Numbered from the whole stretch's first letter, positions 236-16,165 are shown. The stretch: 63,639 nucleotides of DNA, filler included, from Candidatus Woesearchaeota archaeon (GCA_018399355.1; 7 parts of 7 records of this genome joined end to end with filler, not necessarily neighbours in it); one strand, 5' to 3'. Notes: generated by a model from the letters alone, not told the origin. Made by a program: numbers and translations.

Positions 236-1726
236 ATGGTTAAAAAGGAATATATATGGCTTGGCCTGATATTTGTTGTTGTCTTGGGCCTGAGGCTTTA
301 TTTTGCATTTCAGACTCCTTATTTTGATGAAGAAGCTTATTTTAACATAAAGCAGGTAGAACATATAACAAAGACAGGACTGCCTATTTTCAAAGATAGT
401 TTAAGCTATTCAGGGAGAAACCTCCTTTTCCAGCCTTTCTTCCATTATATTCTGGCTTTCTTTAACATTTTCATACCTTTAACACTTGTATGTAAGCTTA
501 TCCCTAATATACTCGCTTCTTTATTAGTTATCATAACTTATATGCTTGTTTTAAGGCTAACAAAAAATAAAACAGCTGCTTTGTTTTCTTCTTTTATATC
601 AGGATTCATCCCAATATATTTTGGAAGCACTATAAATAGTGTTTCAGCTTATACACTAATTATTCCCCTGATATTTTTTATTATATATTGTTTTTTCATG
701 ATTAATAATAACAAGAAATTCATAAATTATTTTATTGTTTCAGTGTCACTGCTGGCTTTTGCGCATTCATCTGCTTTTATCTTTATAATGGCATTTGTGA
801 TATACTTGTTGCTTGTTAAGTTTGAACATTTACCCATTAGGCGTTCAGAAATAGAGCTTATAATCTTCTCAAGCATGCTTATATTATGGATTAATTTTAT
901 AATTTACAAGAATGCGTTTCTTTTGCATGGGCATAACCTGATATGGCAGAATATTCCTCTGGAAATTCTGGGAAACTATTTTTCTGAAATCAGCCTTTTT
1001 GACGCAATTTATTATATTGGAATAATTCCTTTCTTGCTGGGATTTATTGTTATTTATAGGTATACTTTTAAAAAGAAAAGCAGGTATGTTTATTTTCTTA
1101 TAGGGTTTGCGCTTTCTTCTTTGTTTTTACTTTGGTTTAAGTTAATACAAGTTAATACAGGACTTATATTTCTTGGAGTTATTCTTGTTCTGCTTTTTGG
1201 AAAATACTATCCCGAATTAATCTCTTTTATAGACAAAACAAGAGTTTCAAGGTTCAAAAAGCCAATTATAGGGCTTATTTTTGCTGTTTTTTTGATTAAC
1301 TCTGTTTTGCCTTCAATCAGTTACGCTTCCCAGATGATAAGAAATTCACCTTCAAAAACAGAAATAAATGCTTTTCTGTGGCTTAAGGAAAACACAGAAG
1401 AAGATACTGTTGTTCTCGGAAGCCTTGATGAGGGGTACCTTATAAATGCATTATCTGAAAGAAAGAATGTTTTTGATAATAATTTCATGCTTATAAAAGA
1501 TGCTGAACAGCGTCTTGAGGATGCAAGAAAAATATATACAACAAATTATGAAACGGAGGCAATACGCCTTTTAAATAAATATAACATTAAATATATAATA
1601 ATCTCTAGAAAGGTTATGGAATATTATGGAATCACAGATTTAAGTTATAGTTCAAATGAAAAATGTTTTGAGCTTGTTTATGATAAAAGCACAAAAATAT
1701 ACAAGTCATTATGCAGGATGGATTGA
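236..1726 (+). CDS. GT-C-fold integral membrane glycosyltransferase (PMT/ArnT/STT3-like)
   Basis: N-terminal TM followed by an acidic loop (FDEEAYF), about 11 TMs, and a C-terminal soluble domain (WLKENT..DEGYLI..LLNKYNIKYI) typical of archaeal GT-C proteins. Confidence 0.7.
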   Translation: MVKKEYIWLGLIFVVVLGLRLYFAFQTPYFDEEAYFNIKQVEHITKTGLPIFKDSLSYSGRNLLFQPFFHYILAFFNIFIPLTLVCKLIPNILASLLVIITYMLVLRLTKNKTAALFSSFISGFIPIYFGSTINSVSAYTLIIPLIFFIIYCFFMINNNKKFINYFIVSVSLLAFAHSSAFIFIMAFVIYLLLVKFEHLPIRRSEIELIIFSSMLILWINFIIYKNAFLLHGHNLIWQNIPLEILGNYFSEISLFDAIYYIGIIPFLLGFIVIYRYTFKKKSRYVYFLIGFALSSLFLLWFKLIQVNTGLIFLGVILVLLFGKYYPELISFIDKTRVSRFKKPIIGLIFAVFLINSVLPSISYASQMIRNSPSKTEINAFLWLKENTEEDTVVLGSLDEGYLINALSERKNVFDNNFMLIKDAEQRLEDARKIYTTNYETEAIRLLNKYNIKYIIISRKVMEYYGITDLSYSSNEKCFELVYDKSTKIYKSLCRMD

Positions 1727-1728
1727 GA

Positions 1729-3177
1729 ATGAAACTAAATGAAAAGAATACATTAATTTATATTGTTATAACCACAATAGTTTTATCTTCATCTGTTCTT
1801 TTATTAAGGGAAATATTTTATCAAGGATTGATTGTTGGTGAAATGCCTTACTACCACATGGATTCTGCCAGGACAATCATAGAACAAGGAGGCCTAATAA
1901 AGGACAGCGGATATATTTTTTCTCCCTATCACTATTTTCTTGCATTTGCCGGAAAATATATTGGGATAGAGATTACATCAAAAATCATTTCTTTGATTTT
2001 AGGAATATTTTCCGTTGTTATCTTTTATTTACTTTTAAAGGATTTTAATGTGAATATTGAGGAAAGAGCGCTTATGGTGTCTATTCTTGTTTTTTCTCCA
2101 GCATTTATTTATCTCTCATCTTTTCCAAGCAATTTTTCAATTCCTATTTTTTTCACTCTTTTTGGAACATATCTTTTATTGAAAAAGAATATTTTTCTTT
2201 CTATAGTTTGTTTTTTTTCATTTGCATTTGCAATAACCTTTGGAGTGTTCAACTCTGTGCTTGTTATCTCAATAGTCATTGCATACATAACAAATGAAGC
2301 AATAAAACTTAAAAAACTAAAATCAAAAAAGATTCCATCCAGCTTAAGCAAGGCAGCTGTTTTTCTTTTGCTGTTTTTTATAATATCCTTAGCTTGCTTT
2401 TCGCTGTATCTCAAACCAAAAACAAATTTATTGCAGAAAGAGATTATTATCATCCAGGTAATATCAGACCTTGGCTCCTTAAATGGATTAGGAATTTTCA
2501 GCTTAATTCTTGGATTAGTCGGCTTTTCAATGATATGGAAAAAAAGGAAAGAGTTGCCATTATTATTTTTGCCCTTCCTAATAATAATTTTGTTTATATT
2601 TTATGAAAGCAATATAGTTGTTTATCTTTCATTTATAATTTCTGTTTTTGCAGGAAAGGCTTTTTTTGAGATAATTAAAATGAAATGGGAAATTAAGGCA
2701 GTTAAAAATCTTACAATAATACTGATAGTTTGTGGGATTTTGTTTTCAACTATATCCTATATCAACAGGATAAGCAAGATGAACCCAAACGAGGAGATTG
2801 CAGAAAGTCTTGAATGGCTTAACCATTATTCAATTCAGGATGAAATAGTATTCTCCCATTATTCAAAAGGATTTTGGATAAATTATTTTGCAAATACACA
2901 AGTAATGATTGATCAAAATTTCGAATATTTGCCAGATGCAGAAAAACGCTTTAACGATTCAAATGAGATATTTTATTCAAGAAACCTTGAAAGAACAAGA
3001 GAGCTTTTAAAAGAATACAAAATAAATTATATATGGATTGATAGCGAAATGAAGGAAGGCCTTGTATGGGAAACACCAGATGATGGCCTGCTTTTCTTGT
3101 TTAGAAATAACGAAACATTTAAGAATATATATAATAACCAGGGAGTAGAGATATGGGAAGTAAAAGGTGTTAATTAA
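1729..3177 (+). CDS. GT-C-fold integral membrane glycosyltransferase paralog
   Basis: Same architecture as the upstream gene (GEMPYYH loop, multi-TM, LEWL..SHYSKGFWI..LKEYKINYI); ATG 2 nt after the upstream stop. Confidence 0.65.
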   Translation: MKLNEKNTLIYIVITTIVLSSSVLLLREIFYQGLIVGEMPYYHMDSARTIIEQGGLIKDSGYIFSPYHYFLAFAGKYIGIEITSKIISLILGIFSVVIFYLLLKDFNVNIEERALMVSILVFSPAFIYLSSFPSNFSIPIFFTLFGTYLLLKKNIFLSIVCFFSFAFAITFGVFNSVLVISIVIAYITNEAIKLKKLKSKKIPSSLSKAAVFLLLFFIISLACFSLYLKPKTNLLQKEIIIIQVISDLGSLNGLGIFSLILGLVGFSMIWKKRKELPLLFLPFLIIILFIFYESNIVVYLSFIISVFAGKAFFEIIKMKWEIKAVKNLTIILIVCGILFSTISYINRISKMNPNEEIAESLEWLNHYSIQDEIVFSHYSKGFWINYFANTQVMIDQNFEYLPDAEKRFNDSNEIFYSRNLERTRELLKEYKINYIWIDSEMKEGLVWETPDDGLLFLFRNNETFKNIYNNQGVEIWEVKGVN

Positions 3178-3178
3178 A

Positions 3179-4426
3179 ATGGATTTGCCTAATATAATAC
3201 TATCTGTAGTTTACGTGATTACTCTATTTTATACTGTTTTTTGGCTTATAACTTTTATTGACACCAAGGAAGATAAAAAACATAAAATCAAGCATAATCC
3301 TCTTGTTTCAGTTATTGTTCCAGCTTATAATGAGGAAAAATCTATAAAAGAAACCCTTGATTCACTGATTAGATTAGATTACCCAAAGGAAAGAATAGAG
3401 ATAATAGTTGTTAACGATGGCTCAAAAGACTTAACAGCACAGGTTACAGAAACATTTATCTCAGACAATCCTGGTTGTGATATAAAGCTAATAAATCAGG
3501 AAAATCAGGGCAAATGGGTGGCAATGAACAACGCATTGAAATCTGCAAAAGGAGAGTTTTTTGCATGCCTTGATGCAGACTCTGTTGTTAAGAGCGATGC
3601 ATTAAAGAAAATGACGCCTTATTTTGAGGATAATAATGTTGCAATAGTTCTTCCACTGATAAAAGTAAAAAAACCAAAAAGCATACTTCAGAGATTTCAG
3701 CATTATGAATATATCATTAATTTTTTCTATAAAAAGATAATGGGATGCCTGAATTGCATCCATGTTTCTCCAGGACCTTTCAGTATTTACAGAAAAAGCG
3801 TTTTAAATCAACTAGGAGGATTTAAGGAGGGGCATAACACCGAAGACCTTGAGATTGCATTAAGAGTCCAGAAAAACAACTACAAGATAATTCAGCTTAT
3901 GAATGCAGAGGTTTATACTTCTCTTCCTGGAAATTTTAAGGAGCTTTATCATCAGAGAAACAGATGGAACAAAGGAGCTCTTCTAAATGCCTGGGACTAC
4001 CGAAAGATAATATTCAACAAAAAGTATGGAGATTTTGGGATGATGCAGATGCCGGTTGTCATATGCTCTGGATTTCTTGCAATGACTATAATGCTAATGC
4101 TTCTTTATTTTAATATATTGAAGCCTGTTTTAACTAACTTTTATAACTTAAGCCTTGTTGATTTTGACATAATGCTTTTTATATCTAATTTTAAATTCAG
4201 TATAAATTTCCTTGATTTCAATTATTACAAAGCAATAATTATGATTGTTATACTCACAATAACTTTGATTGTTGTAACTCTTGCTCACAAACACACAAAT
4301 GAAAGGATTATGAAATTTGGATTTTTCCCTCTTGTTTCATATCTTTTCTTTTACTACCTTTTCCTTGGCTTTGTTTGGGTAGGGGTTACAAAGGATTTAA
4401 TACTTAAAAAAACTAAAAAATGGTAA
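3179..4426 (+). CDS. processive GT2 glycosyltransferase (IcaA/PgaC/CesA-like)
   Basis: NDGSKD, CLDADS (DxD), NTEDL (TED) and QRNRW (QxxRW) motifs; N- and C-terminal TMs; AGGTG SD before ATG 3179. Confidence 0.85.
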   Translation: MDLPNIILSVVYVITLFYTVFWLITFIDTKEDKKHKIKHNPLVSVIVPAYNEEKSIKETLDSLIRLDYPKERIEIIVVNDGSKDLTAQVTETFISDNPGCDIKLINQENQGKWVAMNNALKSAKGEFFACLDADSVVKSDALKKMTPYFEDNNVAIVLPLIKVKKPKSILQRFQHYEYIINFFYKKIMGCLNCIHVSPGPFSIYRKSVLNQLGGFKEGHNTEDLEIALRVQKNNYKIIQLMNAEVYTSLPGNFKELYHQRNRWNKGALLNAWDYRKIIFNKKYGDFGMMQMPVVICSGFLAMTIMLMLLYFNILKPVLTNFYNLSLVDFDIMLFISNFKFSINFLDFNYYKAIIMIVILTITLIVVTLAHKHTNERIMKFGFFPLVSYLFFYYLFLGFVWVGVTKDLILKKTKKW

Positions 4427-5118
4427 GAGAACTAAATAAAAAGAGGTACTTAATAGCAGGAATCATAACAGCAGTTATATTTTTATTAGGCATAATGCTT
4501 GGAATGGTTGTTGAAGGGCAAAGAGTACAGTATATTGATAAGATAAACAGAATTGAAAAACTTGATTACACCAGCCTCCAGATTCAGTATGCTTACATTG
4601 AGCAGTTAAGCAGAGAGGAAAACTGCAAAGCTGTTTCAAAAACATTTGAAAGCAGTGTAAAAAGCCTTATTGAAACAAGCGAGCGCCTTGAAAGATATGA
4701 AAAAAATGCCAACCTTAACAAAGAAGAGTTTAAAATTCTTAAAAGAGAGTATATGCTGGCCCAGCTTAACTACTGGCTTTTGGCCCAGAGAACAAAAGAA
4801 ATATGTGATAGTGATTTAGTTACAATACTATATTTTTATTCTACTGACAAGGAATGTCCTAGGTGCGAAGAGCAGGCGTTTATCTTGACTTATCTCAAGC
4901 AAAAATTTGGCAATAATCTATTAATTTTTTCACTTGACTCAACATACACTGACGAGCCAATGATAGAGATGCTTAAGCAGCAGTATGATATGCATGAGTA
5001 TCCCACTCTGATAATTGAAAATAGGAAAGTGGAGGGTTTTGTTTCAAAGAGCGAAATATTAAGCATGATCTGCAAAAAATACAGTGAAAAAACATCTGAA
5101 TGTGAAGGGTATTATTAA
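4420..5118 (+). CDS. membrane-anchored thioredoxin-fold protein
   Basis: N-terminal TM, helical region, then YFYS..CPRC and YPTL (cis-Pro) motifs. Confidence 0.65.
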   Translation: MVRELNKKRYLIAGIITAVIFLLGIMLGMVVEGQRVQYIDKINRIEKLDYTSLQIQYAYIEQLSREENCKAVSKTFESSVKSLIETSERLERYEKNANLNKEEFKILKREYMLAQLNYWLLAQRTKEICDSDLVTILYFYSTDKECPRCEEQAFILTYLKQKFGNNLLIFSLDSTYTDEPMIEMLKQQYDMHEYPTLIIENRKVEGFVSKSEILSMICKKYSEKTSECEGYY

Positions 5119-5576
5119 CTTTTGATTTTTATCAAGTCACCCAAAGTTATTTCTTCTGAAGCTGATTTTATTGTTTCTGTTTTCTTGTCTTCGTATTCTT
5201 CAACAAGTTTTATTTTTAAGAATCTTTCAAGCTTTCTTGCAATATCAATGCTTGGCTCAAACGAGCCAGTCTCAAGGTTATGCACAAGGGATTCTTTTAG
5301 TGAAAGCTTTTTTGCAAAATCCTTTTGCTTTATTCCAAGCTGCTCTCTCTTTTTCTTTATCTTTTCGGCAAAATCAGGGACAATAACATCTATTGTCTGT
5401 TTTTTTGGATCTCTTGGCTTTATTTGCCTTATATTATTGTTTTTTTCATCAGAAACAACCCTTTTTTCAACTATTTTTCCGTATCTTGCACAGTTTCTGC
5501 ATACATTAAGCTCTGTTCCTTCTACTATAGCACTAAAAAGATTTTCCTCTTTGGCTCCGCAAAGGTCGCATTGCAT
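5115..5576 (-). CDS. mbf1: archaeal multiprotein bridging factor 1 (Zn ribbon + HTH)
   Basis: MQCDLCG..VEGTELNVCRNCARYG Zn ribbon, Cro-type HTH, C-terminal TLGD; GGGGTGA SD before ATG 5576. Confidence 0.9.
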   Translation of the reverse strand: MQCDLCGAKEENLFSAIVEGTELNVCRNCARYGKIVEKRVVSDEKNNNIRQIKPRDPKKQTIDVIVPDFAEKIKKKREQLGIKQKDFAKKLSLKESLVHNLETGSFEPSIDIARKLERFLKIKLVEEYEDKKTETIKSASEEITLGDLIKIKS

Positions 5577-5684
5577 AGAATTCACCCCATATTATCCATG
5601 TTAGTTTAGATATTTATAACTTTTGATTTGTGCTTTTATTAGGTTAATTATTTAAATACCTTTTATATTATTGTTTTCAATTAA

Positions 5685-6794
5685 ATGAAAATGACAAAAA
5701 TATCAATACTAAAAACAAAGCCAGAGACAGTGATAAAAGAATATAATAAGCTTTTGAATCTTGCAGACTACACTAAATTTATAAAGAAATCAAATGATAC
5801 TGTTCTTAAGCTTAACCTAAGCTGGTCTTTGTACTATCCTGCATGCTCCACTGAGCCATGGCAGCTTGATGGATTGCTTAATGCAATGAAAAAAGACGGC
5901 TATGACTTTAAAAAAATCCATCCTGTGGAGAACAGGACTGTTGTTACAGATGTGTGGAAAGGAGCAGAAGGCAATAAATGGCTTCCAATACTAAAAAAAT
6001 TTAACCTTAAATATGAGCCCTTAACAGAAACAAAATGGGTAAATTTCAAACCAAAGGCAGAAATGCTTGCCTTAAATGATGTCTTTAAGCCATATGGTTC
6101 AAAGTCAAAATCAGAGCCAGTTTATTCTATACCAAAGATGTTTATTGGAAAAAATGTGATTCATCTGCCTACAATAAAAACCCATGGACATACGCAGATG
6201 ACAGGGGCAATGAAGAATGCTTTTGGTGGCTTAATTACCACTAGAAGGCATCACTGCCATAAAAAGATACATGAAATATTAGTTGATTTGCTTGCAATAC
6301 AAAAAGAGATACACCCAGGGATTTTTGCAGTTATGGATGGAACAGTTGCAGGAGATGGAGCTGGACCAAGGACAATGATACCAAAGATAAAGAATACAAT
6401 TATTGCAGGCTCTGACCAGGTTGCAATAGATGCAGTCTCAGCACATATGATGGGTTATGACCCATTAAAGATACCATTCATAAAGATTGCTCATGACCGC
6501 GGCCTAGGCTGCGGAGATATTGATCAGATTGATTTGAAAGGCATAAGCAAAAACGAATTTAAAAAAATAAATTATCATTTTAAGACAAACAAAAGTATTG
6601 TTATTTACTGGGACCAGATGCTTAGAAGAAAGATAAAGTTTATTGAGCCATTGTTGTTTCATACTCCTCTTTTCAAAATGTGTATATTTGGGTCTGCATT
6701 TTATCATGATTACATCTGGTATAATCTTATAGGAAAGAAAAGAATAAATCAGTTTATGAACACTGAATGGGGCAAACTCTGGAAAAAATACTAA
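5685..6794 (+). CDS. DUF362 domain protein
   Basis: LKLNLSW, HLPTIKTHGHT..TGAMKNAFGG, MDGTVAGDGAGP and DQVAIDAV motifs of DUF362. Confidence 0.8.
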   Translation: MKMTKISILKTKPETVIKEYNKLLNLADYTKFIKKSNDTVLKLNLSWSLYYPACSTEPWQLDGLLNAMKKDGYDFKKIHPVENRTVVTDVWKGAEGNKWLPILKKFNLKYEPLTETKWVNFKPKAEMLALNDVFKPYGSKSKSEPVYSIPKMFIGKNVIHLPTIKTHGHTQMTGAMKNAFGGLITTRRHHCHKKIHEILVDLLAIQKEIHPGIFAVMDGTVAGDGAGPRTMIPKIKNTIIAGSDQVAIDAVSAHMMGYDPLKIPFIKIAHDRGLGCGDIDQIDLKGISKNEFKKINYHFKTNKSIVIYWDQMLRRKIKFIEPLLFHTPLFKMCIFGSAFYHDYIWYNLIGKKRINQFMNTEWGKLWKKY

Positions 6795-6795
6795 A

Positions 6796-7254
6796 ATGAC
6801 AAAAATAATTAAAAATATAACAGATATTTTTTTCAAACAGATTACTGACTTTGGAGGGTTCTTTTTTTACTTTCTTATTTTGGGAACATGCCTTTTTTTG
6901 AATGAGTTAGAGCTTTTTTTTAATCTTTTTTTAAGTTTTATTTTTATCATGGCCATAGGAATATTGATAAAATTAGTTTATTTCAAAGACAGGCCGAAAA
7001 AACAAAGAACAACAAATCTTTTTGAAAAGCTTGATGCGTCAAGCTTTCCCTCTGTTCATGCAATGAGGGCAATATCCATTGCATTCTGGCTTTCATTGTT
7101 TTTTAACAATATCTTTTTTACAATTTATTGTTTTGCGATTGCAATAATGGTTATGTACTCAAGAATTTATTTAAAAAAACATTATTTTATTGATGTCTTA
7201 GGAGGTGTTTTATTTTCAGGAATAATAAACATTTTAATCTGGTGCTATTTATGA
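6796..7254 (+). CDS. PAP2-family membrane phosphatase
   Basis: KLVYFKDRP (Kx6RP), SFPSVH and SRIYLKKHYFID (SRx5Hx3D). Confidence 0.85.
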   Translation: MTKIIKNITDIFFKQITDFGGFFFYFLILGTCLFLNELELFFNLFLSFIFIMAIGILIKLVYFKDRPKKQRTTNLFEKLDASSFPSVHAMRAISIAFWLSLFFNNIFFTIYCFAIAIMVMYSRIYLKKHYFIDVLGGVLFSGIINILIWCYL

Positions 7255-8123
7255 AAATAAAGGATTTTATAAGTTTAATCAGGGTAAGACAGTGGTACAA
7301 GAACCTTGTAATCTTTCTTCCTTTAATATTTGGAATGCAGCTTTTTAATTTATTTTCCATAAAGCAAACTTTTATAGGGTTTTTTTCACTTTGTTTTATA
7401 TCTTCTGCGAACTATATAATAAATGATATAAAAGATAGAAAAAGCGATAAAGAGAATCCTGAAAAAAAACACAGGCCCATTGCTTCGGGATCTGTAAGGC
7501 CTTTTATCGCTTTATTGCTGATGATTATTTTTCTCTTTTCAGGACTATACGCAGCGTCAACACTTTCATTTGTCTTTGCTTTGTTTGCATTGTCCTTGTT
7601 TTTGTTGACGCAGATTTATTCCTTTTTTTTAAAAAAACATGCATTTGCAGACATCCTGATAATTTCAGTTAATTTTGTTTTAAGGGCAATAAGCGGAGCA
7701 TTTGTTATTGCAGATGGCTTTGAGCCTTATATCAGGGTTTCATCATGGCTCATATTATGCCCTTTTTTCCTTGCACTATTTTTGGCAACAAGCAAGAGAC
7801 AGGCAGAGGCAATACTTTTGAAGGGTAACTCAAAAAATCACAGACCAGTCCTTGATTTTTACACAAAAGAAATAACCTCTGCGCTTATAATAATCTCAAC
7901 AACGCTTCTTATAGCATCATATTCATTATATGTTTTCTTCAGCCCTTATCCTAATTTAATATTCACCCTGCCTTTTGTACTTTATGTAATCTTTAAGTTC
8001 TTTTATTTTGCAGAGAAAGGCCAGAAGATAGCAAGACATCCTCATCTTGTTTACAAAGACATTGGAATAGTAATCTCGGGCATGATAATAGCTGCAATGG
8101 CCTTCGTTTCAATATACCTTTAA
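7251..8123 (+). CDS. UbiA-family polyprenyl-phosphate 5-phosphoribosyltransferase (DPPR synthase-like)
   Basis: RVRQWYKN, YIINDIKDRKSD..P.KKHRPIASG and LFLATSKRQAE, signatures of the Rv3806c-type UbiA subfamily; ATGA overlap with the PAP2 stop. Confidence 0.85.
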   Translation: MKIKDFISLIRVRQWYKNLVIFLPLIFGMQLFNLFSIKQTFIGFFSLCFISSANYIINDIKDRKSDKENPEKKHRPIASGSVRPFIALLLMIIFLFSGLYAASTLSFVFALFALSLFLLTQIYSFFLKKHAFADILIISVNFVLRAISGAFVIADGFEPYIRVSSWLILCPFFLALFLATSKRQAEAILLKGNSKNHRPVLDFYTKEITSALIIISTTLLIASYSLYVFFSPYPNLIFTLPFVLYVIFKFFYFAEKGQKIARHPHLVYKDIGIVISGMIIAAMAFVSIYL

Positions 8124-8134
8124 ATTAAGAAAAA

Positions 8135-10171
8135 TCAAGAAAAACTTATATAATCAATGAAGCTTATTATTTCTTCTAAGTTTTCCTCTGTTATAATATC
8201 CACAGGGATATCAATCCCAATCTCATTATCTCCCTTTGAAAGCATAAAATACATTTCCTTTAAGTAATCTAAATCATACATCTCTAAATTGCTCCAGTCT
8301 TTAACCATATAGATATCTATCTCTTTTCTTTTAATCGGAACTATTGTTGTATCCCATGAGCCGGTTATTGTTGATTCGATGTTTTCTGTAATTTCTATTT
8401 TTTTGTTTATCCAGTCATCATCTCTTGGGATTATTGAGGTTATTTTTTTACTCGCAATGTTTTCTATTTTATTGATGTAATCAAATGTATCAGCATCTTT
8501 TGAAGTCATGATTCCTAATTCAGTTTCATTTAAGATTCTTAAAAAATTTATAGAGCTATTATTTGGCATAGTTTTGTTTGAAACCAAAACCAAGGTGTGA
8601 GATAAATTATTTTTTTTGATTTCCTGAATTATAACTGAAAGATAATCCATATTTTTTATTTCTCCCTCTTCTGTGATTTTTGCTTCATTGAGCCTTATGA
8701 AAACACTCTTTTCAGCTTCTGGAAGGGAAACATAATTTATTTTTTTCAAGCATTCTTGTTTTGATATTTTTTGCAGTTCTTTTGTCAATATTATTGTTGT
8801 TTCTCCATGAAGATAGCCGCAATCCTCGATGTTGTTTTTAGAGAGAATATAACTTAACCTGTTATTAAAACTTTCAATGCAAAAATTATCATTTTCAGGG
8901 CATGGATAACAATCAGGATTAAAAATAAGCCATTGGGATTTGTTTTCTTTTAGATATGCTAAATATATGTGGCCAAGATTTGGCCCAGGAAGCATTTCTG
9001 CTTTTGAATCTAAATAAATCAAAGGCAATGCACTGTTAGTTATTATTTTTTCATTTGGATAACTCTTTATCAATTCAGCTATCTCTGAATTATGTTCTGT
9101 TCCATCTTTTAATGCAGAATTGACTGAAAAAACAAGTCCCTGAATAAATATCAATGCGATCAGCCAGGGTAAAAATTTCTTGTGTTTTTTTATTATGATA
9201 TAAGCACCATAACCAGCAAAAGGAAAAAGAAATATTATAACAGGAACCATATAGCGCGGCTCATACCTTGGAACCATTAACGAAAAATACAAAAAGAAAA
9301 GGATTATGCATGATGCAAATAGCAAGTAATCCTTTTTCTTGAATTTCAACAGTTGTTTTATTCCTATTAATGAAAAAATTAGAAGAATTGCATCTGTTGT
9401 TATTATACTCATCAAATATTTTAATATTCCTCCATTTCCATAGATCCATGCCTGGCCGCTTATGTGGGATGAAGCTTCAAGCAATGGTCCAAAAATCCTG
9501 CCAAAAAAAGTTCCTGAATAATGAAAAAAATTAAATGTAAAATAAGGTATTGATATTATTAATATTCCAAAGACAAACTCGATTATTTTTGCAAGCTTTT
9601 TTTCTTTGATTATAATATAAAATAATATGGGCAGAACAACAGCTATTGCAGGAAATCTGAAAAGAAAGCCCCCTCCTATTGCAATTCCCGCAAAAAGATA
9701 TTTCCTATCAATAGCAAGGGAGCAAGCCAAAAGAGCTAATGCATAGGCAGGAATGTCTGTGAGGATATAACCTCCGTGCCTTAGCATTAAGATGCTTGCT
9801 GAAAAGAAAATCATGGCCCATCTTGCGGAATTTTCATTAAAAACTTTTTTTGTTGTATAATAAACAATTGGAATTGCTGATATTGTTAGAAGCATCCCTA
9901 AAATTCTCCCTGTGAAAAGAGAATTAAAAGGAACCCACTGAAGAGGTATTAGTAAAAAAGGAAGGGCCAGAGGCCTTATTCCTTCAAAATATCCGATTTT
10001 TCCAAGGCTTGCGAAATATTTTGATATCCCAACATAAACACCCTCATCAAAGAAAACAACTCCGTTTGTGTAAATTATAAGTTTAAACACAAAATATAAA
10101 ATGCAGCATATTATTATGAAAATTAATGTTTTTTTCTTTAAATAATCTTTATTATGGTTATTTTTTTTCAT
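8135..10171 (-). CDS. GT-C (PMT_2/ArnT-like) glycosyltransferase with large C-terminal extracytoplasmic region
   Basis: FFDEGVY loop after TM1, ILTDIP, FLFRFP and PRYEPRY motifs; about 11 TMs. Confidence 0.8.
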   Translation of the reverse strand: MKKNNHNKDYLKKKTLIFIIICCILYFVFKLIIYTNGVVFFDEGVYVGISKYFASLGKIGYFEGIRPLALPFLLIPLQWVPFNSLFTGRILGMLLTISAIPIVYYTTKKVFNENSARWAMIFFSASILMLRHGGYILTDIPAYALALLACSLAIDRKYLFAGIAIGGGFLFRFPAIAVVLPILFYIIIKEKKLAKIIEFVFGILIISIPYFTFNFFHYSGTFFGRIFGPLLEASSHISGQAWIYGNGGILKYLMSIITTDAILLIFSLIGIKQLLKFKKKDYLLFASCIILFFLYFSLMVPRYEPRYMVPVIIFLFPFAGYGAYIIIKKHKKFLPWLIALIFIQGLVFSVNSALKDGTEHNSEIAELIKSYPNEKIITNSALPLIYLDSKAEMLPGPNLGHIYLAYLKENKSQWLIFNPDCYPCPENDNFCIESFNNRLSYILSKNNIEDCGYLHGETTIILTKELQKISKQECLKKINYVSLPEAEKSVFIRLNEAKITEEGEIKNMDYLSVIIQEIKKNNLSHTLVLVSNKTMPNNSSINFLRILNETELGIMTSKDADTFDYINKIENIASKKITSIIPRDDDWINKKIEITENIESTITGSWDTTIVPIKRKEIDIYMVKDWSNLEMYDLDYLKEMYFMLSKGDNEIGIDIPVDIITEENLEEIISFIDYISFS

Positions 10172-10282: not shown

Positions 10283-10382
10283 NNNNNNNNNNNNNNNNNN
10301 NNNNNNNNNNNNNNNNNNNNNNNNNNTTAATTAATTAANNNNNNNNNNNNNNNNNNNNNNNNNNNNNNNNNNNNNNNNNNNN
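10283..10382. other. artificial contig linker
   Basis: N44-TTAATTAATTAA-N44 (stops in all frames). Confidence 0.98.
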
Positions 10383-10590
10383 TTAATTCTGCCTTTTCGC
10401 TTGCTCTTATCTTAACTGATGAATAATAATCTTTTTCCTTTAATCCTAAGCTAAGCCCAAGATTAGGGGCATCAACATCACAGTCTGCAACAACAATCTT
10501 TTTTTCTCTTGCCAGCATTACAGCTAAGCAAGATGAAACAGTTGTTTTTCCTGTTCCTCCCTTCCCTGAAAAAATTGTTATTGTTTTCAT
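10383..10590 (-). CDS. MinD-like P-loop ATPase (COG1149 type), 5' fragment
   Basis: [10 protein letters not shown] and [11 protein letters not shown]; truncated by linker; paralog of 12001-12846. Confidence 0.8.
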
Positions 10591-10606
10591 TTGCAACCAA
10601 GTTAAG

Positions 10607-11233
10607 TTAATTAAAAATACTTTTTATTGAACCCATAACCTTATTTAAACTTTCATAAAAAACATTATATAAATTGATAAAAATATTTTTAGAAGGTTCT
10701 TCAGGAACCATCACATAAATTTTCTTTGTTATGCCATACTTGTTATCAGAATCTTTTTCACATGAAGACTCTTCATCAACACAAACATGAACATTAAAAA
10801 CATATGTTCCTTTTTCTGCTTTTTTTGGAATTTTAATACCTATTAAAATATTTCTTTGTTTATTTGAATCAATATTAATCTTACCTTTATTTATGATTTC
10901 AAACTCAAGTTTTGTATCTGGGTAATCTTTATAATATTCCCTCTCTAAATTTATGTAAAACTCTTTTTCTTCATCATATGTATTAAATATTCCAAGGGTA
11001 AAAAAACCAACTTCATTTGTTTTTATTAATTGGTTATTTGGTGAAATACATAATTTTTCTGAACTATCACATAAGATATATTTCAATTCCTTTTCCCCTT
11101 TTGGAAATGGAAATTTCAAAATTGGTTCATAAGTGAGGTTATAAACATATCTAAAACAAAACAAAAACATAACTATCAGTAATAATATGATTATAAAAAC
11201 GTTGTTTGATATTTTGAATTTTTTGTTTTTCAT
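10607..11233 (-). CDS. membrane-anchored hypothetical protein with beta-rich extracellular domain
   Basis: N-terminal TM; beta-strand pattern ([19 protein letters not shown]). Confidence 0.55.
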
Positions 11234-11234
11234 T

Positions 11235-11426
11235 TTATATTTTTTTTATTGAACCATCAGGCATCATATTATCCGGATGATATTTTCCCTTTTCATCATA
11301 TTTGTATCTTTTGCAGTTTTTCCAGTTTTCATCTGTTTCACAATAGCTTTTTCTCCATTTATCTGTTATCTTTCCTTGTTTTTCCAATCTTCTTAGAGGG
11401 CATATCTTTAACCATTTGCAGGTCAT
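11235..11426 (-). CDS. small Cys-rich protein coupled to UDG
   Basis: 63 aa, C-x5-C-x19-C-x8-C plus HPDNMMPDG; ATG directly abuts the UDG stop. Confidence 0.7.
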   Translation of the reverse strand: MTCKWLKICPLRRLEKQGKITDKWRKSYCETDENWKNCKRYKYDEKGKYHPDNMMPDGSIKKI

Positions 11427-12017
11427 CTACTCACCTAATAATTTTTTTAAAACTAAAAAATCCTGCTTTAAAGTATCTTTCATGTTTGCGTTATAAGTTG
11501 CAACAGCAGGATGATATAATGGAACTATTTTTATTACATTAAACAAGGTGCTCACATTAAATACCTGGCCATGAATCTTGCTTATTCCCTTTATTTTATC
11601 CTTTAAATTGAATTTTTCCATTATATAAGCAGTTGAAAAATTACCCAATGTCCCTATTATCTTTGGATTTAATATCTTTATTTGATTATCAAGGAAGGGA
11701 GAAAACTGATTTATTTCCTCTTTTGTAGGATTTCTGTTTTTTGGGGGTCTTAACTTGACAATATTTGTTATGAAGATATCCTCTCTTTTTAGCCCTGCAT
11801 TATTTAAAATCTCATCCAGTATCTTTCCTGCAGCCCCGCAGAAAGGTTTTCCAGTAATTGACTCATTATATCCAGGAGCTTCCCCTATAAGAATTATATC
11901 AGGATCTAACGAACCCTCACCAAAAACAGGAAAAGTGCCTTCTTCATATAAGGGATGTTTTTTGCAAAACTCATTGCATTCTTTTTTTAGTTTTTTAATT
12001 TCATCTTGTTTTTCCAT
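11427..12017 (-). CDS. udg: family-4 uracil-DNA glycosylase (Fe-S cysteines largely lost)
   Basis: VFGEG, IGEAPG..E..G.PF.G.AG, RPP.NRNP and YHPA motifs. Confidence 0.9.
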   Translation of the reverse strand: MEKQDEIKKLKKECNEFCKKHPLYEEGTFPVFGEGSLDPDIILIGEAPGYNESITGKPFCGAAGKILDEILNNAGLKREDIFITNIVKLRPPKNRNPTKEEINQFSPFLDNQIKILNPKIIGTLGNFSTAYIMEKFNLKDKIKGISKIHGQVFNVSTLFNVIKIVPLYHPAVATYNANMKDTLKQDFLVLKKLLGE

Positions 12018-12846
12018 TTTGCAAATCTTCAGCTAATTTTTTTATGCTTTTGTGGCTTACTGGTTTTCCTTTTGAGTATGATTCCATTATTGATTTTTCA
12101 TAGGGAACTTCAGCAATAATCTTTGTATTGAATTTACTGGCTAATCTTTTTATAAGATTTTTGTCTCCAACATTTGCCTTGTTTAATACAATGTTTGAAG
12201 GAATCTTTAATACCCTCAATAATTCTAAAATTAATTTAAGGTCATGCTCTCCTAAGGGAGTCGGCTCTGTAACCGCAAGAGCTATTTCACTTTTTTCTAA
12301 TGCAGCTATGACATCACAATGCGTTCCTGCAGCAGTATCAACCAGAATAAAATCATACTTTTTGTTTTTTGATTTAATATAATCATTTAAAGCATTTATA
12401 ACAAATTCAGATGACGGCTGATTCGGCTCTAGCTCTGCTGACAAAAAATCAATATTTCCTTTTTTTCCTTCATATATTGAGCCAACTTTTTTATTATCTT
12501 TTCCTATTGCATTTGTAGGGCATGCAAACATACATGCTCTGCATCCATTGCACTGCTCTGGAATAAAAATTGGATATTTTCCTTTTACAAAAACAATCGC
12601 ATGCTGCTTGCAGACCATGCTGCACTTCCCACATTTGATGCACTTCTTAAAATCCCATTTTGGTATTAACTGAAAAACATCCTTTATTTTTTTTCTTTTA
12701 ATTGAGAGAATTAAATGATCATTTGGGCAGTCTGCATCTGCATCTATCAAAAGAATTTTATTTTTCTTTGAAAGCTCAACAGCAAGAGATGTTGCTATTG
12801 TGCTTTTTCCAGTTCCCCCCTTTCCACCTGTTATGGCTATTTTCAT
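12001..12846 (-). CDS. MinD-like P-loop ATPase with inserted 2x[4Fe-4S] ferredoxin domain (COG1149)
   Basis: GGKGGTGKST, DADADCPN, CIKCGKCSMVC, CNGCRACMFACP, DTAAGTHC and VTEPTP. Confidence 0.9.
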   Translation of the reverse strand: MKIAITGGKGGTGKSTIATSLAVELSKKNKILLIDADADCPNDHLILSIKRKKIKDVFQLIPKWDFKKCIKCGKCSMVCKQHAIVFVKGKYPIFIPEQCNGCRACMFACPTNAIGKDNKKVGSIYEGKKGNIDFLSAELEPNQPSSEFVINALNDYIKSKNKKYDFILVDTAAGTHCDVIAALEKSEIALAVTEPTPLGEHDLKLILELLRVLKIPSNIVLNKANVGDKNLIKRLASKFNTKIIAEVPYEKSIMESYSKGKPVSHKSIKKLAEDLQNGKTR

Positions 12847-12894
12847 AATAAAAAAGAAGAATTCAAAATATTTAAATCTTTACAATAAAATTGC

Positions 12895-14004
12895 TTAGAC
12901 CATGCCCAAACTTAATGCAATAATCATTCCTATTCCAAGCAGCAATATTATTATTCCTGCAATAAGGTGAAGTGTTTTAAGCTTGGTTGTTCTCCACTCT
13001 TCTGCCTTTTCTGTTGTTGCAAGACCGAAGTGTATAAGCAACGTTATTCCAATCATAGGGAGTATAAATATAAAGTTATAAAGCAACAGCAGTAAAAACG
13101 CATAATCCCTCGTTGCAACCTTTGAAAGAAGGCCGAGTATTACAATATAGGGCCCAGAAGTGCATGGAAGCAAAAACAGGCTTATTAAAAAACCCATGAA
13201 AAATGCACCTGGAACAGAGGTTATGCTCCTTATCAATGCCTTTAATTTTGGTCTCCAGGACATTGGAACCTCCATAACAAACCATTTCCCATACCAAAAA
13301 TAATCCTTTAAGTTAAACAATCCAACTAGGATTGCAAGAACAGCGACAACAGCATAAAAAGAGTGTGTTAGTCCAGATGCCTGTATTGCTGAAAACAAAC
13401 CAATGCCCATAAGCAAGTAAGATATGTAAATAGAAATGCTGAATGCAATACCTGCAAGCAAAGCCTTTTTCCTATCTTTTGTTGCAAGTATTGTTGTCAT
13501 CAATATTATCAAAACAGCAAATGCACACGGATTTATTGCATCTACTGCAGCAGCAGAAACAACCGCAGGAATAGTTAGCTTTTGAATTACACTGCTCTGT
13601 GTGCAGTTTGTATCCTCTAGTTTTGTCATTGGTGAGCAACATCCCTGTTCAATGCAGGTTTTTATTTCAGCTTCAATTTGATTTCCTATTGCATCATTAA
13701 ATCCAACAAAAGCCTTTTCACCCATATAAAAAGTTGGAACTCCCTCTATCTTTTTGTCGTAAGCTCTAGATATATTTTCAAACAATTCCCTGTTTTCCTG
13801 GCTATTGTATGTTTCATATCTCTCAACATTTAAAGAGGGATATTTTTCTTCCATATTATCAAGGAATGACTCTGCTTTTGCACAGTGGGGGCACCCCTGC
13901 CCATAAAACATAAATAAATCAACTTCACCATTATTTTCAGCAGCATAGCCCATAGATGGAACTATTAAGAACATTAAAAACAAAACAAACATTACTTTCT
14001 TCAT
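12895..14004 (-). CDS. thioredoxin/glutaredoxin domain fused to DsbD/CcdA-type membrane domain
   Basis: Signal peptide, GCPHC, GVPT, then TM domain with DAINPCAF and LPCTSGPY; GGAGG SD favours ATG 14004. Confidence 0.8.
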   Translation of the reverse strand: MKKVMFVLFLMFLIVPSMGYAAENNGEVDLFMFYGQGCPHCAKAESFLDNMEEKYPSLNVERYETYNSQENRELFENISRAYDKKIEGVPTFYMGEKAFVGFNDAIGNQIEAEIKTCIEQGCCSPMTKLEDTNCTQSSVIQKLTIPAVVSAAAVDAINPCAFAVLIILMTTILATKDRKKALLAGIAFSISIYISYLLMGIGLFSAIQASGLTHSFYAVVAVLAILVGLFNLKDYFWYGKWFVMEVPMSWRPKLKALIRSITSVPGAFFMGFLISLFLLPCTSGPYIVILGLLSKVATRDYAFLLLLLYNFIFILPMIGITLLIHFGLATTEKAEEWRTTKLKTLHLIAGIIILLLGIGMIIALSLGMV

Positions 14005-14067
14005 TTTAGCCTCCATATTGCCTCGATTATTAGGAAATATTTATATATTCCTGTTTGTTTAAGAATG

Positions 14068-14106
14068 TGAAACAATATATAAATCCTTGTTTCATGTTTT
14101 GAAACA
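14068..14106. promoter_or_regulatory. candidate operator: TGAAACA/TGTTTCA boxes around a TATA box in a divergent promoter
   Basis: TGAAACA 14068-14074, TATATAAA 14076-14083, TGTTTCA-N5-TGAAACA 14088-14106. Confidence 0.55.
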
Positions 14107-14112
14107 TTAAAA

Positions 14113-14604
14113 ATGAGAATAAAAATAAGTGAACATAAAAACATGCTTTTAGTAATAATGATAATAGCTGTATTTATCTTTATAGTTTCTTTAGCATCTC
14201 TTTATACCCAAAGAGAAATCTCGTGCGGAAGGGCAACAACATGCACAATTCCATTGCCCTTCTTAATACCAATAACTGCCTCAATGGGGCTTTTTGTAGG
14301 CACTTTTGTATTTTATTTCATGGAATCAAAGATAGAGAAGCAGGATGTTAAGATAAGCGAGTCATCAGATGTTATATCAAGGCTTTTAAGCGCAGATGAA
14401 AGAAAATTAATCAATATCCTGGCTGAAAATAATGAATTAACCCAGTCCAAGCTTACATCTCTTTCTAAAATGCCAAGATTAAAAGTTTTCAGGACAATTG
14501 AAAAACTAAAACAAAAAGATCTCATTGAAAAAAAAGAAAAGGGAAAGCTAAGGATAATTAAACTAAAAGATGATTTTAAAAATTTAGCAAAAGAAATGAA
14601 TTAA
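14113..14604 (+). CDS. membrane-anchored winged-HTH transcriptional regulator
   Basis: Two TMs flanking a C-x5-C loop, then LSADERKLI..LTQSKL..KVFRTIEKL wHTH. Confidence 0.75.
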   Translation: MRIKISEHKNMLLVIMIIAVFIFIVSLASLYTQREISCGRATTCTIPLPFLIPITASMGLFVGTFVFYFMESKIEKQDVKISESSDVISRLLSADERKLINILAENNELTQSKLTSLSKMPRLKVFRTIEKLKQKDLIEKKEKGKLRIIKLKDDFKNLAKEMN

Positions 14605-14930
14605 TGCCCGCAGCTTTCTTGTAAATCCTGTATTTTATCAAGGTTTTCTATTACTTCCTTAACTATTGAAAATGGACCTGTCTTTAACTTAATATCAAGA
14701 TTTTTGCATTTTTCCATTGCTCTCATTCCCATTCCAAAGCAATATATTGCATCAACCTCATGGCCTTCCAAAGACTCAACAGGGGCGCATCCTTCAACAT
14801 TTTTAACATCAATAAAACTTAAATCATCTTTTTCTGAATCATAAACTGCTAAATACTGCACATGGCCAAAATGTTCTGCTATCTCTGACTCTTTCCCTTT
14901 ATTGTCAAATACTGGCATAGCAATTCTCAT
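14601..14930 (-). CDS. NifB/NifX-family (FeMo-co-binding-like) protein
   Basis: MRIAMP, EHFGH, CFGMGMRA and C-terminal SCGH. Confidence 0.85.
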   Translation of the reverse strand: MRIAMPVFDNKGKESEIAEHFGHVQYLAVYDSEKDDLSFIDVKNVEGCAPVESLEGHEVDAIYCFGMGMRAMEKCKNLDIKLKTGPFSIVKEVIENLDKIQDLQESCGH

Positions 14931-16165
14931 TTTTTCCTCCTTGTTGGAATTTTAAGTTTTTCCAACCTTTTTTCTTTAAAATTATTTAAAACAGTTTTTA
15001 CTTTTTTTCCTTTTGTTTTGTAAACCTCAACAAGGTTATCCCTTAGAGTGTGAAATGATATTTCGCCCATCTCCTGGGTTATCAATACATCAATATTCTC
15101 TTTTAAAACGAATCTTGCTGCCGAGAGACCTGCCCTTATGTTTTTATTCTTAAAAGGATTCTTCTTAAAATAATGTGAAACTGTATTTTTTCCATTAACA
15201 TCAACAAAAATAAAATGTTCAGCCCTTCCAAAATGGTTGATTACCTCTGATTCAAGGCCTTTTTTATTTTTTACAGGGATCACAATCTTTTGCTTTTCAG
15301 TTTTAAAGGGCTCTATATGTATAGTGAAAGACTCAACTTCATTTATGTTTTTCTGGATTTTTTCCTCTATCTTGTCTGAAACCTCATGGGCCCTTTCAAC
15401 ATCAACAAATTTTCTTATCTTTACATGTGCATCACCAAATATGAATGGCCCTGCTGCCCTTAATCTTATATGTTTTACATCCTCTACTCCATTTATTGAA
15501 ACTATTATTTTTTTTATTTTTCTCTCTGTTTCATTGCTTGGACAAACATCCATCAAGGCAAATATGGCATCCTTTGCTGTTATTACTCCCATTCTTAAAA
15601 CAATAATAGAAATGATTATTGAAAGACCTCCTTCAATGTAAGGGATATTTTTAAAATATATAACTACAAATATTATTATGGAAACAAAAAAGTCCTTTAA
15701 TCTGTCTTTTCCGCTTGCTATCAAGCTTTGTATATTCAGTTCATTACCTTTTTTCTTTAAGTATAATGAAATAATTAAAGAGATTACTGCTGAGAGAGCA
15801 ACAACCACAAACGCAACAAAACCATAATCTGTTTTTGTTGGCGAGATTAATCTTTCATAACTGCTTATAAGAAGATTTATTGCTGCATAAACTATTAATC
15901 CTCCAATAAACAAAGATGCAATGCTCTCTGCCTTATAATAGCCATATGGAAACTTCTCATCCGGCTTTTTCTGCGCTATTTTTAATCCAAAAAAAGATGC
16001 AAAACTTGATGCAATATCTGTTGCTGACTCAAGTGCATCTGCAATCAAAACAACACTTCCTGACAAAAAACCAACAATTCCTTTAATTAGTGCGAGAAAA
16101 AAAGAAACAAAGCTGGATAATATTGATATTCTCTCTCCCTTTTTTAAAATTTCATTTCTTTCCAT
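14927..16165 (-). CDS. cation diffusion facilitator transporter with C-terminal NifX-like domain
   Basis: SGSVVLIADA, FPYGYYKAE, dimerisation domain ending IHIEP, then HFGRAEHF..EMGE NifX domain. Confidence 0.9.
   Translation of the reverse strand: MERNEILKKGERISILSSFVSFFLALIKGIVGFLSGSVVLIADALESATDIASSFASFFGLKIAQKKPDEKFPYGYYKAESIASLFIGGLIVYAAINLLISSYERLISPTKTDYGFVAFVVVALSAVISLIISLYLKKKGNELNIQSLIASGKDRLKDFFVSIIIFVVIYFKNIPYIEGGLSIIISIIVLRMGVITAKDAIFALMDVCPSNETERKIKKIIVSINGVEDVKHIRLRAAGPFIFGDAHVKIRKFVDVERAHEVSDKIEEKIQKNINEVESFTIHIEPFKTEKQKIVIPVKNKKGLESEVINHFGRAEHFIFVDVNGKNTVSHYFKKNPFKNKNIRAGLSAARFVLKENIDVLITQEMGEISFHTLRDNLVEVYKTKGKKVKTVLNNFKEKRLEKLKIPTRRKK

Follow-up and report, generated by a model that had tools for sequence, protein, structure and literature searches.

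In the literature searched, mostly by listing and with subscription papers outside its scope, lipid-linked pentose routes have been characterized only in bacteria. The mycobacterial decaprenyl-phospho-arabinose pathway comprises the PAP2 protein Rv3807c, the DPPR synthase Rv3806c, the DprE1/DprE2 pair and the Aft/Emb GT-C glycosyltransferases (PMC10994848). In the three-component system of Citrobacter youngae O1/O2, Kelly et al. (2024) described ORF15 (PPPRS), the MATE flippase ORF14, ORF12 (GT136) and ORF13, an epimerase of the short-chain dehydrogenase/reductase (SDR) type; optional epimerases are how such systems vary the pentose (PMC11127046). The subject of this work is a four-gene locus (DUF362, PAP2, UbiA and GT-C) of Candidatus Woesearchaeota archaeon (GCA_018399355.1), found in a window of 63,639 nucleotides (nt), i.e., the whole stretch of DNA analyzed. 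This locus is likely the archaeal counterpart of the system of Kelly et al. (PMC11127046).

The Locus and Its Closest Relatives

All four genes lie on one contig of 10,282 nt (G000:C26:1-10282) and fill its right half; beyond this contig, the window holds other DNA, split off by runs of N. The genome (918 kb, 97.5% complete) is Woesearchaeota-like, and the nearest named relatives of its UbiA protein belong to Woesearchaeota and Nanoarchaeota. The open reading frames (ORFs) and Pfam matches (E-values of 1e-22 for DUF362, 1.3e-16 for PAP2, 1.4e-25 for UbiA and 3e-11 for PMT_2) confirm the layout given in a preliminary description of this DNA: DUF362 and PAP2 are 1 nt apart, the UbiA ATG overlaps the PAP2 stop as ATGA, and the UbiA and GT-C genes converge, with their stops 11 nt apart.

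5685..6794, plus strand: DUF362 subfamily protein, 369 residues, soluble, with a LarA racemase/epimerase fold; candidate pentose-remodelling enzyme (PF04015, model fold, linkage with UbiA)
6796..7254, plus strand: PAP2 phosphatase, 152 residues; probable role in taking off the ribose 5'-phosphate or in lipid-carrier recycling (PF01569, motifs)
7251..8123, plus strand: UbiA-fold protein of the polyprenyl-phosphate phosphoribosyltransferase (DPPR-synthase) type, 290 residues (PRK12324, PDB 8j8j, tree, residues)
8135..10171, minus strand: GT-C glycosyltransferase, 678 residues, with a membrane domain and an extracytoplasmic tail; candidate transferase on the acceptor side (PMT_2, model fold)

The 290 residues of UbiA are counted from the ATG in the ATGA overlap, while the automatic ORF listing begins at GTG 7242.

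On balance, the DPPR-type UbiA, the PAP2 phosphatase, the LarA-fold DUF362 and the GT-C protein probably constitute an archaeal version of the lipid-linked pentofuranose system known from bacteria. From family membership, conserved residues, fold and gene linkage, we infer the following reactions. UbiA would join ribose-5-phosphate from phosphoribosyl pyrophosphate (PRPP) to a polyprenyl-phosphate carrier, PAP2 would take off the 5'-phosphate, and DUF362 would remodel, possibly epimerize, the lipid-bound pentose. An EamA/SMR-like pair of small genes on contig C6 is a candidate flippase, the locus itself holding none; a cluster of this kind lies within 8 kb of UbiA in 7 of 56 archaeal loci. Outside the membrane, GT-C would add the pentose to a surface glycan; as AglB is encoded on contig C41, N-glycans are one possible acceptor.

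As in the Citrobacter system, the synthase has the UbiA fold and identical residues in loops II and IV, a phosphatase activity (predicted here) accompanies it, the GT-C protein has an extracytoplasmic tail, and an auxiliary enzyme is optional, being found in some loci and not in others. However, the phosphatase is a separate PAP2 here (PHP in relatives) and a fused HAD domain in Citrobacter, the candidate flippase lies outside the archaeal locus, the optional gene is a DUF362 instead of an SDR, and the host is an archaeon. In the part covered, the text and supplement text of PMC11127046 mention neither archaea nor DUF362, although its picture figures S11/S12 may list hosts. The preliminary description had missed this closer system and taken the mycobacterial pathway as its model. 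With the latter, the locus shares a PAP2 gene directly before and overlapping the synthase gene, as in the Rhodococcus locus, and 10 of 13 named synthase residues. It differs in having no DprE1, no arabinan wall, a GT-C protein that is not specifically Aft/Emb-like, and Thr and Pro at the places of Q135 and K208.

The DprE1/DprE2-type epimerization to arabinose that had been envisaged finds no counterpart here: this genome contains no FAD_binding_4 (PF01565) protein (DprE2 was not searched on its own), and a DprE1-like query, single and thus able to miss relatives, matches only 1 of the 301 genomes of the archaeal order that form the comparison set, namely its own source, G221. Some FAD_binding_4 protein is found in 12 of 59 UbiA genomes. 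In G221 (L131, G221:C7), a cluster of DprE1-like, DprE2-like SDR and GT-C-like genes lies about 4 kb from UbiA, without this DUF362; a DPANN archaeon thus has the gene set of the classical arabinofuranose route.

Haloarchaea carry a further related cassette, on a plasmid of Halostagnicola larsenii and in a phage-like element of Halanaeroarchaeum, consisting of an annotated decaprenyl-phosphate phosphoribosyltransferase and a PHP phosphatase, with a GT-C gene nearby in Halostagnicola. Where DUF362 sits here, an NAD-dependent oxidoreductase/epimerase is found there, and none of the annotated genes seen is a DUF362. This synthase-PHP-SDR cassette (L265:2957-8526 on the Halostagnicola plasmid; HLASA_2008-2013, PMC4866403) occurs in cultured haloarchaea and offers a tractable model and a possible analogue of seroconversion.

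Consistent with what had been stated beforehand, no characterized archaeal lipid-linked pentose route was found in the searched literature. The surprise is limited because public records already annotate archaeal members of the core enzyme family as decaprenyl-phosphate phosphoribosyltransferase. If the proposed pathway is correct, roughly one in five of the order's sampled genomes would belong to archaea with pentofuranoses on their surface, a point relevant to the contact of these symbionts with hosts and viruses.

Assignment of the UbiA Protein

The membership of the UbiA protein in the DPPR-synthase type, i.e., the polyprenyl-phosphate phosphoribosyltransferases, had been proposed from its motifs and is supported by the sequence comparisons below. 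RQWYKN, NDxxDxxxD..HRPIASG and KRQAE are present in the translation, matching the RQWYKN, NDxxDxxxD..RPIASG and KRxAE noted previously. The best NCBIfam family is PRK12324, decaprenyl-phosphate phosphoribosyltransferase (201 bits), with digeranylgeranylglyceryl phosphate (DGGGP) synthase at 31 bits. As a single sequence, UbiA matches only two PDB structures, both of the mycobacterial enzyme (8j8j, E 9.6e-26), and a profile of 36 UbiA sequences gives 158 bits for 8j8j and 32 bits for the DGGGP synthase 6m31. In a tree of 58 rows (quick IQ-TREE, with support only from the Shimodaira–Hasegawa-like approximate likelihood ratio test, SH-aLRT), the protein falls within a 41-row clade (SH-aLRT 98) together with the Rhodococcus DPPR synthase, a NoeC-like protein and the Halostagnicola protein, separate from a 5-row DGGGP-synthase clade (SH-aLRT 100), MenA, MqnP and CyoE. 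In four archaea (G309, G310, G312, G313), UbiA proteins of the DGGGP-synthase and DPPR types occur side by side as paralogues.

For the solved DPPR synthase, Gao et al. named 13 substrate-binding residues, among which K28, Y70 and K191 bind the ribose 5'-phosphate and polyprenyl phosphate (PMC10994848). By alignment to the PDB match, 10 of the 13 are identical here: the Mg/pyrophosphate residues R22, N73, D77, K87, R90, Y138 and K143 correspond to R11, N58, D62, K72, R75, Y123 and K128, and K28, Y70 and K191 to K17, Y55 and K182. Among 85 archaeal-clade rows, taken from the collected loci and including one labelled a bacterium, these last three are kept in 84, 85 and 85, respectively. The exceptions are Q135, K208 and Y157, whose place is taken by F142 and is Phe in some mycobacteria as well (PMC10994848). 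The protein very probably makes polyprenyl-phospho-ribose 5-phosphate.

DUF362: Linkage, Fold and Candidate Chemistry

To our knowledge, DUF362 is a large family without a known reaction, and the literature search returned none. Its importance was missed in the preliminary description; no other gene of the locus is as tightly linked or as informative, and DUF362 is the novel, testable part of the archaeal variant.

The DUF362 of the window belongs to a tight subfamily (58-79% identity in the tree) found in 16 of the 301 genomes at E <1e-100; a further 44 rows have E-values from 1e-15 to 1e-28 and represent different DUF362s. The UbiA profile matches 64 of the 301 genomes at E 1e-20, and 60 are counted (E <=1e-50) after dropping the weak rows G152, G180, G200 and G259; two of the 60 hold a partial or frameshifted gene (G067, G163). 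Eight genomes (G112, G121, G132, G183, G208, G210, G245, G274) count only in the background tallies and are in neither the 60 nor the 16. All 16 DUF362-subfamily genomes hold UbiA, compared with 60 of 301 overall (Fisher p 1e-12, which is overstated because kin are counted as independent), and the two genes lie within about 0.8 kb of each other in 15, the remaining case being interrupted by a contig end. A count from the DUF362 side gives UbiA in 50 of 80 metagenome loci; among the 40 loci with a length of 5 kb or more, 29 contain it. In the bacterial phylum to which G304 belongs, 45 of 121 genomes were positive, and UbiA accompanies DUF362 in 21 of their 25 best loci, or 19 of 23 without G345 and G374. 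The conserved unit is thus DUF362 plus UbiA. The trio, in turn, is not one, contrary to what had been expected for relatives, because DUF362 and PAP2 are jointly present in 0 of 56 archaeal UbiA loci; they share 4 of the 80 DUF362 loci, never in the window's order. Viral contigs gave 40 pattern matches, none of them a DUF362 relative, and plasmids only 2 weak DUF362 matches.

The structural model of DUF362 (pLDDT, the predicted local distance difference test score, of 90.3) has its best fold matches in the LarA family (Z 14.0-15.7; next 5.6), with a root-mean-square deviation of 3.0-4.3 over 215-232 residues at 8-14% identity, and Foldseek weakly agrees. A sequence search of the PDB with DUF362 returned 0 matches at E 10. 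Both families belong to Pfam clan CL0471; the shared clan and the LarA residues His108, His174, K184, His200 and R75 are given in PMC11770544. The pattern H167-x9-K177-x14-H192 is present in 43 of 43 aligned DUF362 rows, 9 of 10 LarA homologues show H-x9-K-x15-H, and the spacing of H167/K177/H192 agrees with His174/K184/His200 to within one residue. The agreement is one of spacing, and counterparts of His108 and R75 were not located in DUF362. Unlike LarA, the archaeal protein would act on a lipid-linked sugar, in a genome without LarE and LarC.

In LarA chemistry, a carbinol is oxidized and the hydride is given back to the other face. By analogy, such chemistry would be what a one-step 2'- or 3'-epimerization needs, and the LarA fold therefore makes DUF362 a candidate epimerase. 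The linkage to UbiA, the fold and its chemistry, the precedent of optional epimerases and the rarity of DprE1 together lead us to favour DUF362 as the pentose-remodelling enzyme. Action on a lipid-linked sugar is somewhat better than an even bet, while the narrower proposal that the modelled protein may epimerize this sugar is tentative. Equally speculative is the wider proposal that the subfamily could represent a single-protein, LarA-fold hydride-shuttle epimerase converting lipid-linked ribose to another pentofuranose without DprE1/DprE2 or the nickel-pincer cofactor, and hence a third epimerization route common to DPANN archaea and several bacterial phyla, which many symbionts would run on PRPP not made by PRPP synthase. 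If the pathway proposed for the locus is correct, DUF362 gains a defined substrate, and its LarA fold might prove to work with another cofactor.

Two other roles for DUF362 were considered and rejected. PHP accompanies it in 21 of the 80 loci and PAP2 in 4, so that it does not take the place of the phosphatase. Nor does it stand in for PRPP synthase, which is present in 13 of the 16 DUF362 genomes and in 22 of the 44 other UbiA genomes.

Variants of the gene were also observed. In L050 (5319-7949), a LAGLIDADG intein lies between the equivalents of K165 and T166, two residues before the motif His. Longer DUF362 genes with a large insert near the conserved motif occur in L218:689-3406, in G136:C16 and in several genomes of the survey of G304's phylum. 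A second DUF362 type (about 346 residues), paired with a gene of the FAD amine-oxidase family, stands beside UbiA and the first DUF362 in L013, L015, L017, L023 and L034.

PAP2, GT-C and the Gene Neighbourhood

UbiA resides in surface-glycosylation loci, in agreement with the surface-glycan role foreseen for it. Among the 56 archaeal UbiA loci, glycosyltransferases of families GT2/GT4 are present in 36, GT-C-like genes in 25, this DUF362 in 16, PHP in 7 and PAP2 in 6. PAP2 and PHP never occur together, and one or the other is found in 13 of these loci; the place of the phosphatase is taken by PAP2 in some loci, by PHP in others and, in Bacillota, by a divergent PAP2 (DUF212). The distribution of UbiA is patchy, since it is missing from all 4 genomes of the same family.

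The PAP2 translation shows KxxxxxxRP, PSxH and SRxxxxxHxxxD, which we take to be the defining PAP2 motifs. Its likeness to the Rhodococcus PAP2 that adjoins the DPPR synthase is weak (E 0.002), and its best NCBIfam match is undecaprenyl-diphosphatase, far below the cut-off. The assignment of this protein as the phosphatase of polyprenyl-phospho-ribose 5-phosphate is slightly favoured.

Residues 1-455 of the GT-C model match STT3/PglB/AglB/ArnT/ALG9 folds (E ~1e-6). The GT-C family is present in 43 of the 60 UbiA genomes, at most about 2 kb from UbiA in 17 of these 43, and in 85 of the 241 genomes without UbiA; it is therefore linked to UbiA but not dependent on it. A full-length relative turned up only in L030 (37%), where its gene is directly upstream of a UbiA gene. 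The use of a pentose donor by the facing GT-C, part of the original proposal, is suggested by linkage only, and the chances that this protein is the pentose transferase are about even.

Weighing the Proposed Pathway

Several observations weigh against the proposed pathway. The UbiA score lies below the PRK12324 cut-off of 234 bits (as does that of the Corynebacterium control); the ribose-O3 contact Q135 is Thr120 here, with a Gln one place on, and this place is Thr/Ser in 72 of the 85 archaeal-clade rows and Asn in 15 of 19 bacterial rows; the cleft lysine K208 is Pro199. The DUF362 subfamily is missing from 44 of the 60 UbiA genomes, the H-x9-K-x14/15-H pattern turns up in 12% of shuffles, and the profile–profile comparison (hhalign) of DUF362 with the 10 LarA homologues is not significant (probability 2% and 0.1%). 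LarE is above the cut-off in 0 of 5 genomes and LarC in 1 of 5, neither of them in this genome (LarB was not searched), and the LarA nickel cofactor is therefore not made here. The GT-C fold is no nearer to the arabinosyltransferases AftA/AftB than to STT3, ArnT and ALG9, and the family is widespread in genomes without UbiA.

The supply of substrates adds to these points. PRPP, previously named as the pentose source, lacks the expected genomic association: PRPP synthase is not enriched with UbiA (35 of 60 genomes versus 182 of 301 overall; Fisher p 0.77). In a looser search with PF13793, 4 of the 25 negative UbiA genomes became positive, as did 4 of 20 controls; the other 21, among which 17 have a completeness of 90% or more, again gave no match. 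In the present genome, the only PRPP synthase gene (G000:C3:165-1205, minus strand; L003) is interrupted by an in-frame TAG (1059-1061) following codon 48, which may reflect a pseudogene, a strain variant or an assembly error; the contigs of run X1 leave 1022-1091 of L003 uncovered, so that the TAG site is neither confirmed nor excluded. A read-through code was rejected, since TAG ends 63 long ORFs (TAA 376, TGA 115) and is therefore a normal stop here. These findings on PRPP synthase lower our confidence. As for the carrier, no HMG-CoA reductase or 1-deoxy-D-xylulose 5-phosphate (DXP) reductoisomerase match was found in the genome, and the precursors must therefore come from outside; two cis-prenyltransferases are present. 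A second, divergent cis-prenyltransferase-like gene was noted in L007 (G000:C9:1269-1988), where the family match spans a TAA.

Among the alternatives, the one that survives best, although clearly less probable, is that UbiA makes lipid-linked ribose while its neighbours are a loose collection, in which PAP2 recycles polyprenyl pyrophosphate, GT-C uses hexose donors made by GT2 and another transferase moves the pentose. The undecaprenyl-diphosphatase match of PAP2, however far below its cut-off, would fit such a role, as would the scarcity of PAP2 or PHP in the loci, the occurrence of GT-C without UbiA, the opposite strand of the GT-C gene and the further GT-C-like genes of the genome. However, recycling could be done by a second PAP2 encoded on another contig (C25), PAP2 and PHP alternate beside UbiA, and both the short distance between GT-C and UbiA in 17 genomes and the position of the L030 relative speak for a connection.

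Somewhat less probable still is the use by the archaeal clade of a donor other than self-made PRPP (PRPP from the host, reverse reactions of adenine or uracil phosphoribosyltransferase (APRT, UPRT), or a sugar phosphate that DUF362 might supply), or a module that is idle in this genome. The missing link to PRPP synthase, its interrupted gene and the clade-wide change of Q135 to Thr/Ser agree with this. APRT- and UPRT-like genes, named from sequence, are present in the genome, and a phosphoribosyltransferase is found in 4 of 5 PRPP-synthase-negative genomes tested, G159 being without such a match too; reverse reactions or host supply could give PRPP. On the other side, all pyrophosphate, Mg and 5'-phosphate contacts are kept except K208, PRPP synthase is commoner in DUF362 genomes than in other UbiA genomes, and none of the four genes is disrupted; the contigs neither confirm nor exclude the stop codon in PRPP synthase.

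That UbiA is instead an ether-lipid (DGGGP) synthase or a quinone prenyltransferase is highly improbable and was rejected: although it is the only UbiA-family gene of this nearly complete genome, many relatives are automatically named '4-hydroxybenzoate polyprenyltransferase' and one DPANN paper, in the part covered, reads a Woesearchaeota UbiA, not necessarily of this family, as lipid/quinone related (PMC8204110), this is opposed by the tree, the profile scores, the paralogues in the same genomes, the conserved phosphoribosyltransferase-specific K28/Y70/K191 and the lack in this genome of matches to geranylgeranylglyceryl phosphate (GGGP) synthase, HMG-CoA reductase and DXP reductoisomerase.

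Further Genes of the Contig and the Window

The left half of the contig and the region just upstream of DUF362 contain the following features.

236..1726, plus strand: multi-transmembrane GT-C-like protein 1 of the linked block (weak STT3-type match, E 9e-5; about 8 transmembrane segments by hydropathy; recurs next to UbiA in related loci)
1711..3177, plus strand: multi-transmembrane GT-C-like protein 2, paralogue of protein 1 (same BLAST cluster; no Pfam match)
3167..4426, plus strand: membrane GT2 glycosyltransferase of the linked block (PF00535, E 9e-36; PgaC-like, 164 bits, below cut-off)
4420..5118, plus strand: membrane-anchored thioredoxin-like protein of the linked block (TraF-like match; cluster in 9 related loci)
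5115..5585, minus strand: helix-turn-helix (HTH) protein, recurring neighbour of the block (HTH_3; like-annotated HTH cluster next to UbiA in 13 loci)
5651..5658, plus strand: putative TATA-box-like element TTTAAATA, 27 nt ahead of the DUF362 start (read by eye)

The two GT-C-like genes, the GT2, the thioredoxin-like gene and the HTH gene, which presumably encodes an archaeal MBF1-like protein, are part of the same recurring block as UbiA. The order GT-C-like, GT-C-like, GT2, thioredoxin-like, GT-C, UbiA recurs in L012, L024 and L031, and in L146 the block of GT-C-like, GT2, thioredoxin-like, GT-C and UbiA genes is found together with DUF362, PAP2 and AglB. Past the N gap, positions 10327-16165 of the window belong to other contigs and presumably encode, from labels given by eye, ParA/MinD-like ATPases with a ferredoxin insert, NifB/NifX-like small proteins, a cation-efflux fusion and a uracil-DNA glycosylase.

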